From sequence record NC_028448.1: a DNA stretch of 64,000 nt; one strand, written 5' to 3'. A program made the translations under genes and the position numbers. The notes beneath the pieces are model-generated. The model had not been told where the DNA came from and searched no databases. It worked only from the letters and a program-made list of their open reading frames with translations. The DNA is from Escherichia phage slur14. Within the stretch, counting starts at the first letter, position 1, and each line of letters begins with the position of its first letter. Below, in pieces: positions 14,925-50,215 of the stretch.

Positions 14925-16744
14925 TACTGACTCATCCATTCTTTGCGAAGGTCAGCATTATCTCCCATGAGCATTTCAAAAAGCTCTTTCCAGTTCTCAG
15001 GAAGTTTAACAACATCATATACTGGATTTTGAATCATTTCACGATATTCAGATTTTTCCAAAGAGCCAAGTCCTTTAATATAACGGATGCTATGTTTAGG
15101 TAGAGCATCTTTGGCACTCTCATATTCAGCGACTGTATAAAACCATTCTTGTTTTTTACCGACCTGAGCGATGATTACAGGAGTTTTGACGAAGCGAATT
15201 CTTCCTTGTTCAAACAGTTCTGGCCAATTACTAAAAAATCCGAGCAGAGAAGGATAAATGCTTCCTAGACCATCGTGGTCAGCATCGGTCATAATAGCAA
15301 TATTATGATAATTCAAGTTTTCAGCCTTTTCACCAAGAACTAATCCAGTGATTGCGCAAATGTCAAACAGTTCTTTGTTTTTAAGCATATCGGCATATGA
15401 CATACCCCAACTGTTGAGAACTTTACCACGCAATGGATAACCACCATGAAGTTCTTTATCACGAACATCAATAAGATATCCGATAGCAGAATCACCCTCA
15501 GTCAAGAACAATGTAGTGTCAGCATCTTTACCGCACAGATTAGCTTTAATATGTTTATGAACCTTTGCCTTAGAAGCCTTTTTAGCTGCTTTAGTTTCTG
15601 CTGCTTTTTCTGCCGCCAATTTACGAGCCAAAGCAGCTTCAATAATCGGCATCAGAATTGCTTCATTATTTAGAATAGCGCGTGAAATCTTTTTAGCGTC
15701 AAGTTGAATATGACTACGAATTTCGCCAAATGGAGAAGTCAAACGCTCTTTAGTTTGAGAATCAAATCGCATGTTTTTCATATCACGAACAAACATAACG
15801 ATTGTCAAACATTCTTTTACACGCGCTTTAGTTACATCAATTTTGAACTTACGTTTGATTTGTGGAATAAGGTCTTCACAAATATCATCCATAACACAGT
15901 CAATGTGATGGCCACCATTCTTAGTGTGAATGTTATTCACGTAAGTTAATTGACGAAATCCATCCGGTGAACGACCAACCGCAATAGAACAATTTTCTTG
16001 TTCTTGAACGATAGCATGCTCATCATATTGGCGTGCATATTTCTTAAAATTGCCCTGAACCTTTTTACCATTAAAGGTAAATTGAATATCAGGATAAACT
16101 ACTGCAAGTGTCTGGAGACGATCTAGTGTAATGTCAAGATAAACTTGGGACAGCTCATTAGTTTCAAATGACATAAAATCAGGAATGAAAGTAACACGAG
16201 TTCCTTTCCATTTTCCAGGAATATCTTCCCATGATTTATTTTCCATGCCGTTTGAACAACGAACTACAATATTATTTTGACCATCACCAGTTTCACCGAC
16301 AAACATCACAGAAAAAATGTTTGTCAAACTAGAACCAACACCATTCATACCGCCAGTGACGCGTTCTTTATCATCGCCAAAGTTACCACCTGCTTTTGGA
16401 ATAGTCCATGCAGCAACAGGACCAGGAATTTCTTCACCGGTAGGTGTTTTAACCATCGCCTGTGGAATACCACGACCGTTATCTTCAACTGTTACTTGAT
16501 TGTTTTTAATAGTAACATTAATTTTATTTGCGAATTTAAACTTAGTACGAATACCTTCATCTACTGAGTTATCGATAATTTCATCAATAAGCTTAACAAG
16601 ACCAGGTACATACTGAACACTTTCCCATTTACCAAACAGAAAGCGCTCATGCATTTCATTAGCAGAAGAGCCAATGTACATGCCGCTACGCTTTTTGATA
16701 TGTTCAATATCGCTCAGAATTTTAATTTCATTCTTAATCATCAC
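14924..16744 (-). CDS. 39: DNA topoisomerase II large subunit gp39 (fused 39/60 form)
   Basis: 606 aa with a GyrB-like ATPase N-terminus and Toprim region; single uninterrupted ORF. Confidence 0.9.
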   Translation of the reverse strand: MMIKNEIKILSDIEHIKKRSGMYIGSSANEMHERFLFGKWESVQYVPGLVKLIDEIIDNSVDEGIRTKFKFANKINVTIKNNQVTVEDNGRGIPQAMVKTPTGEEIPGPVAAWTIPKAGGNFGDDKERVTGGMNGVGSSLTNIFSVMFVGETGDGQNNIVVRCSNGMENKSWEDIPGKWKGTRVTFIPDFMSFETNELSQVYLDITLDRLQTLAVVYPDIQFTFNGKKVQGNFKKYARQYDEHAIVQEQENCSIAVGRSPDGFRQLTYVNNIHTKNGGHHIDCVMDDICEDLIPQIKRKFKIDVTKARVKECLTIVMFVRDMKNMRFDSQTKERLTSPFGEIRSHIQLDAKKISRAILNNEAILMPIIEAALARKLAAEKAAETKAAKKASKAKVHKHIKANLCGKDADTTLFLTEGDSAIGYLIDVRDKELHGGYPLRGKVLNSWGMSYADMLKNKELFDICAITGLVLGEKAENLNYHNIAIMTDADHDGLGSIYPSLLGFFSNWPELFEQGRIRFVKTPVIIAQVGKKQEWFYTVAEYESAKDALPKHSIRYIKGLGSLEKSEYREMIQNPVYDVVKLPENWKELFEMLMGDNADLRKEWMSQ

Positions 16745-34964: not shown

Positions 34965-35309
34965 TTAAAAGAATTTAAATTTTTTCTTTGACCTTTTATT
35001 AAATGCATCTTGCAGTTGCATTGTAATACATTTTTCTACATGAGGAGCTAACTCAGCTTTTCTTTCTTGGTCAAGAACAGCAAAGTCCATTACAACCTTT
35101 CCATCAACCCAATCTAATTTTGTCACATACACAATGTGTGTAGAACCATCTTCTAGTTTAATGACAATCTCCTGGATAACATTTTCCATGGCAGATTTAA
35201 TTATCTTAAGAGATTCATTAAAAAGACGTTCTTTTCTTTCTTCTTCCCCCTCCGAAGAGGGGGATTCGTCGATAATTTCTAGATCTAAGTCTAAATCATC
35301 TTTATTCAT
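34965..35309 (-). CDS. 40: gp40-like protein (head assembly)
   Basis: About 114 aa from an internal ATG, between 41 and uvsX as in T4. Confidence 0.55.
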   Translation of the reverse strand: MNKDDLDLDLEIIDESPSSEGEEERKERLFNESLKIIKSAMENVIQEIVIKLEDGSTHIVYVTKLDWVDGKVVMDFAVLDQERKAELAPHVEKCITMQLQDAFNKRSKKKFKFF

Positions 35310-36483
35310 TAAATTCTTCCATATCACTTAACTGCTCGAGGTCAGTTTCTAAATCAGCTGCTGATTTACTTTTACTTTCTGGAGATTTAAATTTTTCAAC
35401 CTTTGAGTTAATCAATTCATCAACTTCAGCTTCAACAATTTCATTACTATCAATAGCACCTAACTGATAAGCACGTTTAATAGCATCTCGGAATGGTTGA
35501 TGCTTAAATAAAGGACCCCAGAATGTAGTGCAGTTGGTATCTTTTGCACGCCAAGATTTTTCTTCGCGAATCATCTCGCCGGTTTCTTCATCAAGAAATT
35601 CACGAGCATACCAGCCATTTTTAGGTTTTACCACGAATCCTAATTCTAGAGCCATATCTAACAATCCAGAATAAGGATCGATACCACCGTCAAATTTAAC
35701 ATCAATAAAGAATTTACTTTTTTCTTTAACGGTACGAGATTTTTCTACATTTAGAACAAATTGATACCCCTGAAGATCAGAACCATCTTTAATCTGACGC
35801 TTACCGATAATGAATACAGTATCAGCCGAATACATTACGCCTGTACCACCTGTCATCACGGTTTTACTAAACATTTCAATTGTTTCAATTGTATGGTTAA
35901 CCGCAACGCACGGAATATTTTTAATGCTAAAATAAGGAGTAACAATACGGAATAATGACTTCAGTGATTTAGCACGAGTCATATCTGCCACAGATTTTTC
36001 ATTCAAGGCATCTTCCGTTTCTTTCTTAGAAGCCATATTACCGATTGAGTCGATGAATACAATAACCTTTTCACCACGCTCAATAGCTTCAAGCTGGTTC
36101 ACCATATCAATTTTCAGTTGTTCAACTGACTGAATCGGCGTATGAATTACTCGTTCCGGGTCAACTCCCATGGATCGCAAATAAGCTGGAGTAATACCAA
36201 ATTCGCTATCATAGAATAGACAAACCGCGTCAGGATATTTGTTCAAATACGCCGCAACCATAGTCAAAGACATATTTGATTTAAAGTGTTTAGAAGGCCC
36301 TGCGAAAATAGTTAAACCAGACTGCATACCACCATCAATCGCACCAGAAATAGCAATATTAAGCATTGGAATTTTTGTACGAATTACATCCTTTTCATTA
36401 AAGAATTTAGATGTAGTCAGTTCAGCAGTCATTTTAGAAGTGGAAGCTTTAATCAAACGGGATTTTAAATCTGCAATAGACAT
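35302..36483 (-). CDS. uvsX: Recombinase UvsX (RecA family)
   Basis: 393 aa; RecA-like Walker A (GPSKHFKS). Confidence 0.95.
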   Translation of the reverse strand: MSIADLKSRLIKASTSKMTAELTTSKFFNEKDVIRTKIPMLNIAISGAIDGGMQSGLTIFAGPSKHFKSNMSLTMVAAYLNKYPDAVCLFYDSEFGITPAYLRSMGVDPERVIHTPIQSVEQLKIDMVNQLEAIERGEKVIVFIDSIGNMASKKETEDALNEKSVADMTRAKSLKSLFRIVTPYFSIKNIPCVAVNHTIETIEMFSKTVMTGGTGVMYSADTVFIIGKRQIKDGSDLQGYQFVLNVEKSRTVKEKSKFFIDVKFDGGIDPYSGLLDMALELGFVVKPKNGWYAREFLDEETGEMIREEKSWRAKDTNCTTFWGPLFKHQPFRDAIKRAYQLGAIDSNEIVEAEVDELINSKVEKFKSPESKSKSAADLETDLEQLSDMEEFNE

Positions 36484-36560
36484 TCATTTTTTCCATAGGC
36501 ATCATTATATTTTCCTCACTGGTTAAAGATAGAGTAATTATAACACAATAAATTTAGGCA

Positions 36561-37409
36561 TTAATCAACTGCTATTGGATGAATAGCATTAAACTTATGA
36601 AATGCTTCTGATTTTTCTTTACGAGAAACACACATGCGAAGAACCTTTAATGGCTCGTCTTCTTCACCCAACGATTTTCGTTTTTCAATATTAGAAGTTT
36701 TCCAACGAGCTTGCTCTGGAAACTCTCTATTGATTTGTTCAAGCGCTCTATTATGTTTAGAATTACTACGAATTGAACTGCACCCGCCGGGAGCGTGTGA
36801 TTTTCCAGATACAACTAGATATTTGAACAAGGCCAAATGCGGATAACCTTGATTAATTAAATTGAGAAATGCGTACATATCTTCACATAAATCAATTTTT
36901 CCATACCCAATTTGTTCTGTCGTAAGTTTTCCGAGGTCATACCATGTATTCGTGAATCCATATGAGTTTTCACGATAATTACCCCAAGATGAAGTAATTT
37001 TAAAAATTGGTAGACGAGCATGACCGTGATAATACCCGCAATCCATAGCATCCTCAACGTATTGAATTAATTCATAGAACTGTTCACGAGTTAATTGATT
37101 AATTTTATCTACGCGCCGTTTATCGTCTCTCTTTCGTATTGAACTCATACGAATAGTAGTATCATCATCAATCATCCAGATTCGTTGACCTGCATACATA
37201 TCAGTAATTGCTTTACGAGTACCGGCAATTCCATTAACATCATCAGGAATAGTTACAATTTTAGCTCTAGACCCATAAGCATCATAATAAGCTTTTTCTT
37301 CGTGTTCACGCACTACAATATGTGGTTCATAATCAGTCGGAAACATATCAAGGGCAGAAACTGCCCCTACGCGTTGATAGCTTGGAATTACGAATTGAAT
37401 CATTTCCAC
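36561..37409 (-). CDS. Glycosyltransferase (GT-A-like, DxD motif), in the T4 beta-gt position
   Basis: 282 aa with WMIDDDT; located between uvsX and gene 42. Confidence 0.55.
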   Translation of the reverse strand: MEMIQFVIPSYQRVGAVSALDMFPTDYEPHIVVREHEEKAYYDAYGSRAKIVTIPDDVNGIAGTRKAITDMYAGQRIWMIDDDTTIRMSSIRKRDDKRRVDKINQLTREQFYELIQYVEDAMDCGYYHGHARLPIFKITSSWGNYRENSYGFTNTWYDLGKLTTEQIGYGKIDLCEDMYAFLNLINQGYPHLALFKYLVVSGKSHAPGGCSSIRSNSKHNRALEQINREFPEQARWKTSNIEKRKSLGEEDEPLKVLRMCVSRKEKSEAFHKFNAIHPIAVD

Positions 37410-38140
37410 TCACCGTTATAATCTTTTTTCACAATATGAGTTTCGCCAGTATTCCACCAATGATCAACCAAGTAAAAATGACGAGAATATACATGAAGAC
37501 TTCCAACATTCCATATAATAGAACCTGCTTTATACTGACGAGTTGAATCGCCTGCATTCAAATCAGATACTAATTTATCTAATACGTATTTTTGCCATGC
37601 ATAATCATTACGGAATCCGAAGACCACGTCATTTGAGCGCATGCTTACTACTGCATTGACTTTCTTATCACGAATCAGGTACTGTACTGTATTCGTACAC
37701 ATGAAATCTGACATACCATCTTTATTGTAGTCAAATTGCATGGATGGACGAGTATAAATCATGATACCACGTCGAGAATCAGGATTTTGACCAAGTTCAG
37801 CTAAACACATATCATACTGAGCATAGTTATCTTCTGACCAGATAGCCCAACCATAATTCGAGTTAATTTCGCCTTTAGAAGATGCTACCTGCTGCCAAAT
37901 CTTCGGTGTTTCACCTGGAATATCTTTAACGAACAAGCTCTTAGATTTATACCATTCAAGTTCACGCTGAATGTATTCATCATTAAGAGCGCCAAAAATA
38001 AAAGGTTCATCTGCTACAAATGATGCACCAATAATTTCAATAGTTTTAACCCCGGTTTTATCAATTACGAAATCTTTTTCCTTTAATGCAAGACCCAAAT
38101 CAAGACGGATTTCTTCAACTGTCATATAATCGTTAATCAT
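37400..38140 (-). CDS. 42: dCMP hydroxymethylase gp42
   Basis: 246 aa; thymidylate-synthase-like. Confidence 0.95.
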   Translation of the reverse strand: MINDYMTVEEIRLDLGLALKEKDFVIDKTGVKTIEIIGASFVADEPFIFGALNDEYIQRELEWYKSKSLFVKDIPGETPKIWQQVASSKGEINSNYGWAIWSEDNYAQYDMCLAELGQNPDSRRGIMIYTRPSMQFDYNKDGMSDFMCTNTVQYLIRDKKVNAVVSMRSNDVVFGFRNDYAWQKYVLDKLVSDLNAGDSTRQYKAGSIIWNVGSLHVYSRHFYLVDHWWNTGETHIVKKDYNGEWK

Positions 38141-38293
38141 TTAAACCTCAATTGATGCATTCATATTTAATTTGTAACAGTAATAAACTCCAACCTAAAA
38201 TAATAGTTGGAATCATAAGAGGAACCGTTACACTATAGTATATACTTATTATAACCATCAAGATTAAAAGCAACACTGCTATAATTTTGCTTT

Positions 38294-38545
38294 TCATTCC
38301 TTCTCTCTGATGATAATTACCTGATTTGGCTGCGCAGACTTTTTAGTTTCACCTACAATTGACCAAATAAATGTAATAAACCAACCAATAATTGACCAGT
38401 TAAACAGTAAAGATGTGAAAAAGATTCCTACTGTCGATTTTGACCCACGCATCAAGGCGATAAACCATGGAAGCATGTATATAATAATAGCCAACACGCC
38501 TGATACTAAAACCATAAAAATTGAACCTGCTACTAAAGTTTCCAT
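38294..38545 (-). CDS. imm: Immunity protein Imm
   Basis: 83 aa with two TM segments. Confidence 0.9.
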   Translation of the reverse strand: METLVAGSIFMVLVSGVLAIIIYMLPWFIALMRGSKSTVGIFFTSLLFNWSIIGWFITFIWSIVGETKKSAQPNQVIIIREKE

Positions 38546-43294: not shown

Positions 43295-44254
43295 TCACTT
43301 CCACTGCATTTCACATGCTAACTGAATGAAAAGATAAGCTAGATGCAATTCAGTATTAGCTGCAATACCATGATACTGGTTATTTTCACCAACAATTTCA
43401 TACATACGAATAATACTTTGCGGAGTTACGCGTGTATAGATTTCTTCGGCAAGTTTACCCACGAACCACGAATAATCAGCTGCATATTTTGGTGCTAAAG
43501 CTCTGAGTTGTTTAACATCTTTATTTTTGAGAGACTCAAGAACATCATCAATAGCACCACGATCGTTAGTAACCAGTGATAAAATACCAGCATCCAAAAC
43601 ACCTTTAGATGAATAACTATCGAGCTCGCCAATAGTTTTACGAAAATCAGGAAAATTCTTTTTAACCAAAGCTGCTACAACTTTCATATCAGCTATAGCA
43701 ATTCCTTCATGCTTACAGATTTCAGTCAATCGACGAATCATCTGCTTCATCATTTCAATTTTATCTTCATCGGTCGGTTGACCGAATGTAATAACTCGGC
43801 AGCGTGACTGAAGCGGTTTAATAATACCATCAATATTGTTAGCAGTAATAATAATACTACAGTTTGAACTATAAGCTTCCATAAATGAACGAAGATGTCG
43901 CTGAGACTCTGCTAGCCCTGAACGGTCAAATTCATCAATAACGATTACTTTTTGACGACCATCAAATGAAGCTGCACTGGCAAAATTAGTCAAAGGACCG
44001 CGAACGAAATCAATTTTACAGTCTGATCCATTTACAAACATCATATCAGCATTTACATCATGACACAATGCTTTTGCTACAGTTGTTTTACCTGTTCCTG
44101 GAGAAGGAGAATGAAGAATAATATGTGGAATCTTACCTTTACTTGTAATAGATTTAAAGGTTTCTTTATCAAAGGCGGGAAGAATACATTCATCGATAGT
44201 AGATGGACGATATTTCTGTTCAAGAATGTGTTCTTTTTCATTTACGGTAATCAT
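43295..44254 (-). CDS. 44: Clamp loader large subunit gp44
   Basis: About 319 aa from [17 protein letters not shown]; AAA+ Walker A ([10 protein letters not shown]). Confidence 0.9.
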
Positions 44255-44289
44255 AATTTCCTCATTCAAGTTTTAGTGTAAATTATAAA

Positions 44290-44301
44290 GGGCCGAAGCC
44301 C
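44290..44301 (-). other. UUCG-tetraloop hairpin in the 45-44 intergenic region
   Basis: GGGCCGAAGCCC. Confidence 0.5.
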
Positions 44302-44305
44302 TCTA

Positions 44306-44992
44306 TTAAAAATCGTGGGTAGAATCAGCTTCAAGAGCTACTACATAATTCGCGTGTTCACCTTCAAATTTAGCAGCACCTTGTTTACCTTTTGCCCAGA
44401 GCAGAAGTTTATAATTTCCTGGTTGCATTTTCATATTTGCCATATTGATAATGAAATTAAATGTATTTTCACCATCATAATCACCAAGAGTCAAAGAATA
44501 TTTAACACGGGTCAGAGCAGAATCTTCTACTTTATTAAAACCGTTAATTACGATTTTACCTTCTTTTACCGTGATAGCAATTGTATCAATTTGCAGACCA
44601 CGAGATACACGCAACAGTTGTTGAAGGTCTTCAGCTTTAATTTCAGTAACAACAGATGCTACCGGGAATGGAATTGGTTTATTAGGAGCAACTACTGTAC
44701 TCGGATCGGCTGCTGGCCAAAAAATTGTTGAACGAGCATCAGCAATTTTAATATTTCCATCTTCTGACTGGGAAATTTCTGCATCATCATTAACTAGAGA
44801 CAGAATACCGAGAAAACCGTTCAAATCGTAAATTGCTACATCAAAATCAATAACGTCAGAAATATTTGCTTCCGCATAAGTTGTACCATTAACTGCGCGA
44901 GTCATAATAAATTGACCGGATTTAAGCATAATGCCAGAGTTAATAGTAGCGAAATTTTTCAAAATATTCAGTGTATCTTTAGACAGTTTCAT
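44306..44992 (-). CDS. 45: Sliding clamp gp45
   Basis: 228 aa, the T4 gp45 length. Confidence 0.95.
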   Translation of the reverse strand: MKLSKDTLNILKNFATINSGIMLKSGQFIMTRAVNGTTYAEANISDVIDFDVAIYDLNGFLGILSLVNDDAEISQSEDGNIKIADARSTIFWPAADPSTVVAPNKPIPFPVASVVTEIKAEDLQQLLRVSRGLQIDTIAITVKEGKIVINGFNKVEDSALTRVKYSLTLGDYDGENTFNFIINMANMKMQPGNYKLLLWAKGKQGAAKFEGEHANYVVALEADSTHDF

Positions 44993-49012: not shown

Positions 49013-50215
49013 TTATTTTGTAATAATGTCAAACTGTTCTTTAAAACAGAAGCTTGAATCTTGATGCTGATACAAAAATTCATATGCTTTTTCTCGCTCA
49101 CGGTCATAAAGAGCTCGGTCAGATGACAGTTCTTTAATACGCTCGAATGTTGATTCCATGTCATTTTCATCAAACCAAATGATACCGCTATCATGCGAGG
49201 TCAAAGGAGTATTATCAACACGGAATTTTAAATTTTCGCCAGTAGATTTCCAGAAAACAGGAATTGTACCGCAAGCACCTAATTCAAGATGAGTATATTC
49301 TAGTGAGCGTTGTAAGTATTTCTGGTTAAGTTTACTCAACTGATATCCAAAGCCAGATTTACTCATTCGTTCAAGCATTTCACTATTAATATAACAATCT
49401 AGGATTTGTGCCGGTTGATTCGGCGTGAGATTCATTTTATCGATCTCACGATTACCGTAATATTCATACGGAATACCTTTTTCCTTAATTGCAATAAAAG
49501 CAGGGGAACGTTCAAGACCTTCCATTACAGTGGATTTACCAGCAGGTTTTAAGAATTTTTCGTGAAAATCAAACATCTGGTAAAAACCTTTCCATGTAGT
49601 CGTACGACCAATCCAACGATTGATATTCATGTTAATTTCAGAAACATCTTTCCAGTAGGTTGATCGAACTTTCGCAATATCCATAGGAGGCTGAAAGTTA
49701 TATACGGTCGGTGCTTCTTCAATATCATCAAACAGAGAAACAGTTTCCGGATACCATTCTTTCATCAAAACTTTATTAAAGTCACCATTATCAGAATGGC
49801 TAAAAATAACATCAGCTCGACGAACAGTTTCTTCTAATCCCAAATTTCGACGCAAAGAAAGAACAGAATGATCATGCTGATAAACTACAACACGAATAGA
49901 AGGTTTAATATTATCTAAAAGTTTTTTATAGTTATTAATCGTGGCTTCTTGAACGGAAGTAGCAGGAACAGAATTAATAATTAGAATATCACAATCATTT
50001 ACCAGCTTAAGTGCTTTATCGTATTCTTTAGCTAAAATAACTGGAATTGAAAATGATTTGTGGTCATGAGAACTTGTACGAGTAAATGATTTATCTTTAG
50101 CATAAACCAAAGTTACTTCATGACCATTCTTAATAAACCAATCACGTTGCTCAAGAGAAAATTTAGTTACACCACAACCTTCAAGACCTCGAGCCATAAA
50201 AATACATACTTTCAT
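49013..50215 (-). CDS. a-gt: DNA alpha-glucosyltransferase
   Basis: 400 aa; length, position and remembered N-terminus (CIFMARGLEGCGVTKFSLEQRDWF) fit T4 alpha-gt. Confidence 0.85.
   Translation of the reverse strand: MKVCIFMARGLEGCGVTKFSLEQRDWFIKNGHEVTLVYAKDKSFTRTSSHDHKSFSIPVILAKEYDKALKLVNDCDILIINSVPATSVQEATINNYKKLLDNIKPSIRVVVYQHDHSVLSLRRNLGLEETVRRADVIFSHSDNGDFNKVLMKEWYPETVSLFDDIEEAPTVYNFQPPMDIAKVRSTYWKDVSEINMNINRWIGRTTTWKGFYQMFDFHEKFLKPAGKSTVMEGLERSPAFIAIKEKGIPYEYYGNREIDKMNLTPNQPAQILDCYINSEMLERMSKSGFGYQLSKLNQKYLQRSLEYTHLELGACGTIPVFWKSTGENLKFRVDNTPLTSHDSGIIWFDENDMESTFERIKELSSDRALYDREREKAYEFLYQHQDSSFCFKEQFDIITK

Follow-up and report, generated by a model that had tools for sequence, protein, structure and literature searches.

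A T2/T6-type ba-gt gene between uvsX and gene 42 of phage slur03 and its very likely role in the gentiobiosylation of hmC

The ba-gt locus and its genomic setting

Positions 30000-52000 (22 kb) of the window, i.e., of the whole 64,000-nt stretch of DNA analyzed, are 100% identical to the Tequatrovirus phages slur03 (NC_042129.1 / LN881728) and slur08, and the locus is referred to hereafter as that of slur03. The ba-gt (ggt) gene, annotated as encoding a beta-glucosyl-HMC-alpha-glucosyltransferase, occupies positions 36561..37403 of the minus strand (280 aa plus a TAA stop codon at 36561..36563); its ORF, RefSeq annotation, Pfam and PHROG matches and predicted structure concur in a protein of the TAGT family with a GT-A fold. 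It lies in the slot between gene 42 (upstream; 37400..38140, minus strand) and uvsX (downstream; 35302..36483, minus strand), the latter, identified by the Pfam domains T4_UVSX_C and RecA and by its annotation, marking this conserved slot. Gene 42 matches Pfam Thymidylat_synt (thymidylate-synthase fold) and is syntenic with gene 42 of T4, T2 and T6. Its RefSeq label in slur03 and several relatives, 'thymidylate synthase', is a misnomer as judged from this synteny, which points to dCMP hydroxymethylase. A hydrophobic 49-aa ORF is located between gene 42 and imm (38148-38297, minus strand); the BGP and Geo records list it as a CDS, and the slur03 RefSeq record has no annotation for it.

The uninterrupted minus-strand ORF begins with a GTG codon at 37409, ends with the TAA at 36563..36561 and comprises 282 codons. 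Its two additional codons, GTG GAA (37404..37409, minus strand), fall within the 3' end of gene 42 and are probably not translated as part of ba-GT. Translation most likely begins with the ATG at 37403 and produces a protein of 280 rather than 282 aa, because this ATG and the TGA of gene 42 overlap as ATGA (within 37400-37409), because the same start is used in RefSeq and in the BGP, Geo, T2 and NR1 records, and because it yields the N-terminus of close homologues (MIQFVIPSY). Such an overlap, seen in the sequence, suggests translational coupling of ba-gt to gene 42, whose product makes the hmC precursor; in T4, by comparison, gene 42 and b-gt are 23 nt apart. An earlier note on this DNA had described a 282-aa protein in the position of T4 b-gt, accompanied by a T4-like alpha-gt at 49013..50215. 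The position is borne out by the Pfam identification of both neighbors, the corresponding T4 slot being filled by the 351-aa b-gt and the homing endonuclease gene segA, and so is the alpha-gt (see below); the open frame was correctly delimited, and only its start should probably be moved to the ATG.

The GC content along ba-gt (0.35-0.37) is similar to that of the neighboring genes and thus does not point to a recent foreign origin. Within the gene, in a region that is fully conserved coding sequence, there are antisense ORFs of 55-78 aa. An Rfam search of both strands of 36200..38300, with matches accepted up to E = 1, returned nothing, and a scan of 36300..38400 detected 11 promoter-like sites (9.4 expected) and one terminator-like site (0.9 expected), i.e., chance frequencies that are uninformative. 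The minus strand has, at 37349-37369 (35-55 nt into the ba-gt coding sequence), a hairpin with a GC-rich 9-bp stem, TAGGGGCAG TTT CTGCCCTTG, and a T-rich stretch behind it, with the same sequence in T2 and T6; given the single terminator-like site against 0.9 expected, it may be nothing. The 77-nt spacer between ba-gt and uvsX (36484-36560, minus strand) contains TGCCTAAA and, 12 nt further, TATAAT, an arrangement that we take to resemble the MotA-dependent middle promoters of T4, such as PuvsX; it was not listed by the sigma-70 promoter scan.

The DNA alpha-glucosyltransferase gene a-gt is located at 49013..50215 (minus strand), as supported by its RefSeq annotation and by a match to Pfam PF11440 AGT (E = 5.6e-259). 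A tblastn search of the whole slur03 genome detected no homologue of T4 beta-GT (best E = 3.9), and the glucosyltransferases of this genome thus consist of exactly one alpha-GT, one ba-GT and no beta-GT. The slur03 record also contains a 279-aa hypothetical protein (CDS 43948-44787, adjoining DNA ligase) that is weakly alpha-GT-like at 44158-44586 of the record (locus L005); the identity to alpha-GT is 23% over 154 aa (E = 0.045), and this likeness is probably due to chance. Both ends of the linear slur03 record fall inside the window: position 16339 is record position 1, and the last base of the record falls at about 16213 when the alignment is extrapolated from the other side, which implies that 16213-16339 corresponds to a 127-bp repeat at the record ends, reflecting either terminal redundancy or assembly overlap.

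Family assignment, conserved residues and predicted fold

RefSeq already names the slur03 CDS at window positions 36561..37403 (minus strand; YP_009625204.1) beta-glucosyl-HMC-alpha-glucosyltransferase. The sole Pfam match of the protein is PF20691 TAGT (TET-associated glycosyltransferase), with 39.1 bits against a cut-off of 27.5 and coverage of profile positions 2-205 of 205, and it matches PHROG 842 'beta-glucosyl-HMC-alpha-glucosyltransferase' with E = 1.4e-88, while no NCBIfam model matched. Homologues were detected by tblastn in 687 phage records, with at least 90% identity in 473 of them, nearly all from T-even-like enterobacterial phages, and a second group at ~65% identity was formed by Klebsiella and Enterobacter phages. 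By these sequence comparisons (687 records and the PHROG 842 E-value of 1.4e-88), the ORF is real, far beyond chance. An exhaustive HMMER search of 1.84 billion cluster representatives yielded 367 relatives at E ≤ 0.001, and conservation was assessed on 98 full-length relatives (17-64% identity), all 98 of which match TAGT.

Two other affiliations were ruled out: in a BLASTP comparison the protein did not resemble T4 beta-GT (family PF09198), the best E being 4.1, and no detectable similarity links the protein to the phage's own alpha-GT, of which it might have been a paralogue. A relationship to T4 beta-GT or to a non-glycosyltransferase family was what the earlier note had named as speaking against its reading, and neither was found, the family being one of glycosyltransferases.

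The predicted structure of ba-GT (pLDDT 92.6) has a GT-A fold, consisting of a single Rossmann-like alpha/beta/alpha domain, and superposes on solved GT-A enzymes. A published AlphaFold3-based study of the T6 enzyme agrees with this, placing it as a sister group to GT2 inside the GT-A fold (PMC13216743). Searches of the PDB with the sequence and with the 98-sequence profile gave chance-level matches only, with no solved member of the family.

Among the 98 relatives, R11, D80, D175 and G207 are invariant, and I6, P7, R63, D79, D81, G186, G206 and R212 are at least 90% conserved; slur03 ba-GT retains every one of these residues. In the alignment, the best-conserved feature of the family is the DxD motif, represented by DDD (D79-D81; 37161..37169, minus strand; Asp codons GATGATGAT) within WMIDDDT and located in the model at the end of strand 74-78. 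The initial reading of WMIDDDT as a GT-A-type DxD motif is upheld by the invariance of D80 and by the GT-A fold of the model. By analogy with characterized GT-A enzymes, DDD would hold a divalent cation and the diphosphate of UDP. The segment IPSYQR (residues 6-11; 37371..37388, minus strand), which includes the conserved I6, P7 and R11, forms the loop that follows the first beta strand of the model (E3-7) and, resembling the GT2 'IPxYN' motif, is a putative nucleotide-binding loop. The 'ED' pair E174-D175 (36879..36884, minus strand) stands at the start of helix 174-184 of the model, and its invariant D175 is, by analogy with GT2, a candidate for the role of catalytic base in an inverting GT-A enzyme. 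A further conserved family motif, PGGCSSIR (P205-R212; 36768..36791, minus strand), which contains the invariant G207 and the at least 90% conserved G206 and R212, directly follows S202 and H203, two of the positions that mark the allele of slur03, BGP, Geo and EL.

Proposed function and expected DNA modification

The orthology, synteny, fold, motif conservation and set of glucosyltransferases established above, together with the literature from which the product and the defence phenotype are taken, make it very likely that the gene is the slur03 orthologue of T2/T6 ba-gt (ggt, TAGT), whose product converts alpha-glucosyl-hmC to gentiobiosyl-hmC. Accounts of T-even DNA modification agree that alpha-GT glucosylates hmC first and that ba-GT then adds a second, beta-1,6-linked glucose (PMC13216743, PMC11078745, bioRxiv 10.64898/2026.02.25.707755). 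In slur03, the gene 42 product would supply hydroxymethyl-dCMP and replication would place hmC into phage DNA; alpha-GT (49013..50215) would attach an alpha-linked glucose to hmC; and ba-GT, a small, soluble and presumably inverting GT-A glycosyltransferase, would use UDP-glucose to add a second glucose, beta-1,6-linked to the first, giving gentiobiosyl-hmC. UDP-glucose would be held by the IPSYQR loop and by DDD (D79-81) with its divalent cation, and D175 of 'ED' would be the base activating the 6-OH of the acceptor glucose, with inversion of the anomeric configuration. Formation of a beta linkage from UDP-alpha-glucose requires inversion, in keeping with a GT-A enzyme of GT2-like type in which DxD binds a metal and an acidic residue acts as the base. 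Since slur03 has no beta-GT, its DNA should contain hmC, alpha-glucosyl-hmC and gentiobiosyl-hmC, and no beta-glucosyl-hmC.

The second sugar would mask alpha-glucosyl-hmC from host enzymes that recognize the monoglucosylated base. T6 lacking ba-gt contains alpha-glucosyl-hmC only and shows increased sensitivity to the glycosylase Brig1 (PMC11078745), in line with the earlier expectation that the sugar pattern matters for sensitivity to modification-dependent restriction, and deletion of ba-gt from T6 restores the release of glucose by BapA (bioRxiv 10.64898/2026.02.25.707755). Gentiobiosyl-hmC is resistant in vitro to Brig1, the glycosylase of alpha-glucosyl-hmC, and it also resists glucose removal by BapA (PMC11078745, bioRxiv 10.64898/2026.02.25.707755), and it is still cut by GmrSD and BrxU-type enzymes (PMC13216743, PMC11078745, PMC13390438, bioRxiv 10.64898/2026.02.25.707755). 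Which host defences recognize the phage DNA thus depends on the second glucose, and the gene content of slur03 (alpha-GT and ba-GT, no beta-GT) predicts its modification class and likely defence sensitivities, which is useful in phage choice. The function of ba-gt itself is already known: it is a textbook enzyme, named in the public slur03 record, and the novelty that the earlier note implied does not hold, as biologically there is nothing new.

The closest non-slur relatives over the 22-kb region are BGP (99.3% DNA identity) and Geo (98.7%); their ba-GT proteins are 100% identical to that of slur03, and the slur03 alpha-GT differs by one residue from that of BGP and by one from that of Geo. 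The share of gentiobiosyl-hmC is ~5% in T2 and ~72% in T6. HPLC/MS of BGP and Geo virion DNA gave 5-hmdC, alpha-glucosyl and alpha-gentiobiosyl forms at ~1:2:2, with no beta-glucosyl form (PMC13390438), a sugar pattern unlike that of T4, as had been anticipated. Because the ba-GT of these measured phages is identical to its own, slur03 DNA probably has a ratio of hmC, alpha-glucosyl-hmC and gentiobiosyl-hmC near 1:2:2, without beta-glucosyl-hmC. As far as protein identity can be a guide, slur03 very probably makes gentiobiosyl-hmC at a level intermediate between those of T2 (~5%) and T6 (~72%). With outcomes of ~5% (T2), ~72% (T6) and ~40% (BGP/Geo), the same gene pair predicts the kind of modification and not its amount.

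Comparison of six Durham phages at residues 50, 89, 95, 97, 101, 202 and 203 showed that the ba-GT allele tracks the measured modification. The V50 I89 K95 R97 I101 S202 H203 allele is shared by slur03, EL, BGP and Geo, the three measured phages of this set (EL, BGP and Geo) constituting the 1:2:2 group, and in a comparison of nine sequences EL agrees with slur03 at each of the 14 variable positions. The I/M/R/C/V/A/Q allele is found in NR1, EH2, Solly, T2 and T6, and the DNA of NR1, EH2 and Solly has about two-thirds gentiobiosyl-hmC (PMC13390438). This link between allele and modification is correlative and confounded by phylogeny, the EL/BGP/Geo group being a single clade, and it seems rather doubtful that allelic variation of ba-GT sets the gentiobiosylated share of T-even hmC. 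If true, such control would resolve a long-standing puzzle, the wide difference between T2 and T6, which have the same two genes.

Other functions were weighed against these data. The ba-gt gene sits in the T4 b-gt slot and is entered as 'b-gt' or 'putative beta-glucosyltransferase' in several public records, so that the protein could be viewed as a functional stand-in for T4 beta-GT that beta-glucosylates bare hmC directly, without extension of alpha-glucosyl-hmC; such an enzyme would likewise be inverting and beta-forming. This is highly improbable, however, in view of the lack of sequence similarity to T4 beta-GT, the different fold class (GT-A versus GT-B), the presence of gentiobiosyl-hmC and absence of detectable beta-glucosyl-hmC in BGP and Geo, whose proteins are identical (PMC13390438), and the retention of alpha-glucosyl-hmC in T6 lacking ba-gt (PMC11078745). 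Use of another sugar or another acceptor, as may be the case for other TAGT and phage DNA glycosyltransferases (e.g., arabinosylation in Mosigvirus), has an even smaller chance of being correct. It draws on the diversity of TAGT, many members of which occur without alpha- or beta-GT and have no defined function (PMC13216743), and on distant relatives linked by 17-35% identity only; homologues are also found paired with beta-GT or alone, implying that acceptor specificity varies in the family (PMC13216743, 2026 NAR). Such variation hardly applies to slur03, because its protein is 96-100% identical to characterized members, including the classical T2 and T6 enzymes (96-97%), and only glucose-based mono- and disaccharides were detected by HPLC/MS in the DNA of BGP and Geo, which have the 100% identical protein (PMC13390438).

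It is equally hard to credit that ba-gt is present but inactive or weak, leaving the DNA effectively T2-like or with alpha-glucose only. Odd alleles do occur in laboratory phages, such as R11H at a family-invariant Arg in T2 and, in the T6 records, an amber at codon 10 (in one) and a DDD to DD deletion (in the other), and the slur03-type allele accompanies a lower gentiobiosyl share than the NR1/EH2/Solly type. The slur03 ORF is nevertheless intact and retains all invariant and near-invariant family residues, and an identical protein is accompanied by ~40% gentiobiosyl-hmC in BGP and Geo (PMC13390438). An active gentiobiosyl-forming ba-GT is therefore the preferred reading.

Comparison with T2, T6, T4 and other GT-A enzymes

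The suggestion that this is a second glucosylation enzyme of the T2/T6 type is supported by homology: slur03 ba-GT is 96.8% identical to T2 ggt (MH751506; 9 differences in 280 positions, no gaps) and 96.1% identical to T6 ggt (MH550421; 11 of 280, no gaps). In T2 and T6, ggt likewise lies between gene 42 and uvsX, has the same partner, alpha-GT, and is also found without a beta-GT. Seven substitutions (V50, I89, K95, R97, I101, S202 and H203) separate slur03 from T2, T6, NR1, EH2 and Solly, and neither R11H and P251S of T2 nor the lesions of the two T6 records are present in slur03.

Codon 11 of T2 ggt (MH751506, locus L003, 3286-4128) encodes His in place of the Arg that all 98 TAGT relatives have there. 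R11H is found in all seven T2 records and in SV76, and among 680 phage records these eight are the only ones with an exact copy of the N-terminal 39-aa peptide containing H11; judging from this conservation, R11H may plausibly be the cause of the ~5% gentiobiosyl-hmC of T2. The ba-gt sequences of the two public T6 genomes differ from each other, and both look damaged. In MH550421 (locus L002, 3138-3980), an amber TAG replaces CAG at codon 10, and the annotated CDS is 261 aa long, starting from Met20. In NC_054907/AP018814 (locus L011, 101-940), the source of the T6 reference sequence in a 2026 paper (PMC13216743), Q10 is kept and one GAT of GATGATGAT is lost in frame, turning DDD into DD. These lesions are odd, given that T6 has the most gentiobiosyl-hmC. 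Along with R11H and the allele difference between the measured phage groups, they may have a bearing on the unequal gentiobiosylation of T2, T6 and their relatives.

In T4, the slot filled in slur03 by the 280-aa ba-GT is taken by the 351-aa b-gt together with segA. The two enzymes differ in acceptor, which is bare hmC for T4 beta-GT and alpha-glucosyl-hmC for ba-GT, although both form a beta linkage with inversion. UDP-glucose is the donor for both, as established in T-even biochemistry. Their folds are distinct as well, GT-B in T4 beta-GT and GT-A in ba-GT (PMC13216743 and the present model).

With the PF20691 TAGT family, ba-GT shares the invariant R11, D80, D175 and G207, whereas it is a modest-scoring member (39 bits) encoded by a T-even phage without a TET/JBP dioxygenase; unlike in the TET-associated setting of TAGT, the source of hmC in slur03 is gene 42, acting at the nucleotide level. 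The inverting GT2-like GT-A enzymes S. aureus TarS and TarP, WrtF and BcsA are 8-15% identical to ba-GT, with a TM-score of ~0.5. Unlike these enzymes, ba-GT has as its acceptor a sugar on duplex DNA and is devoid of membrane- or polymer-binding domains.
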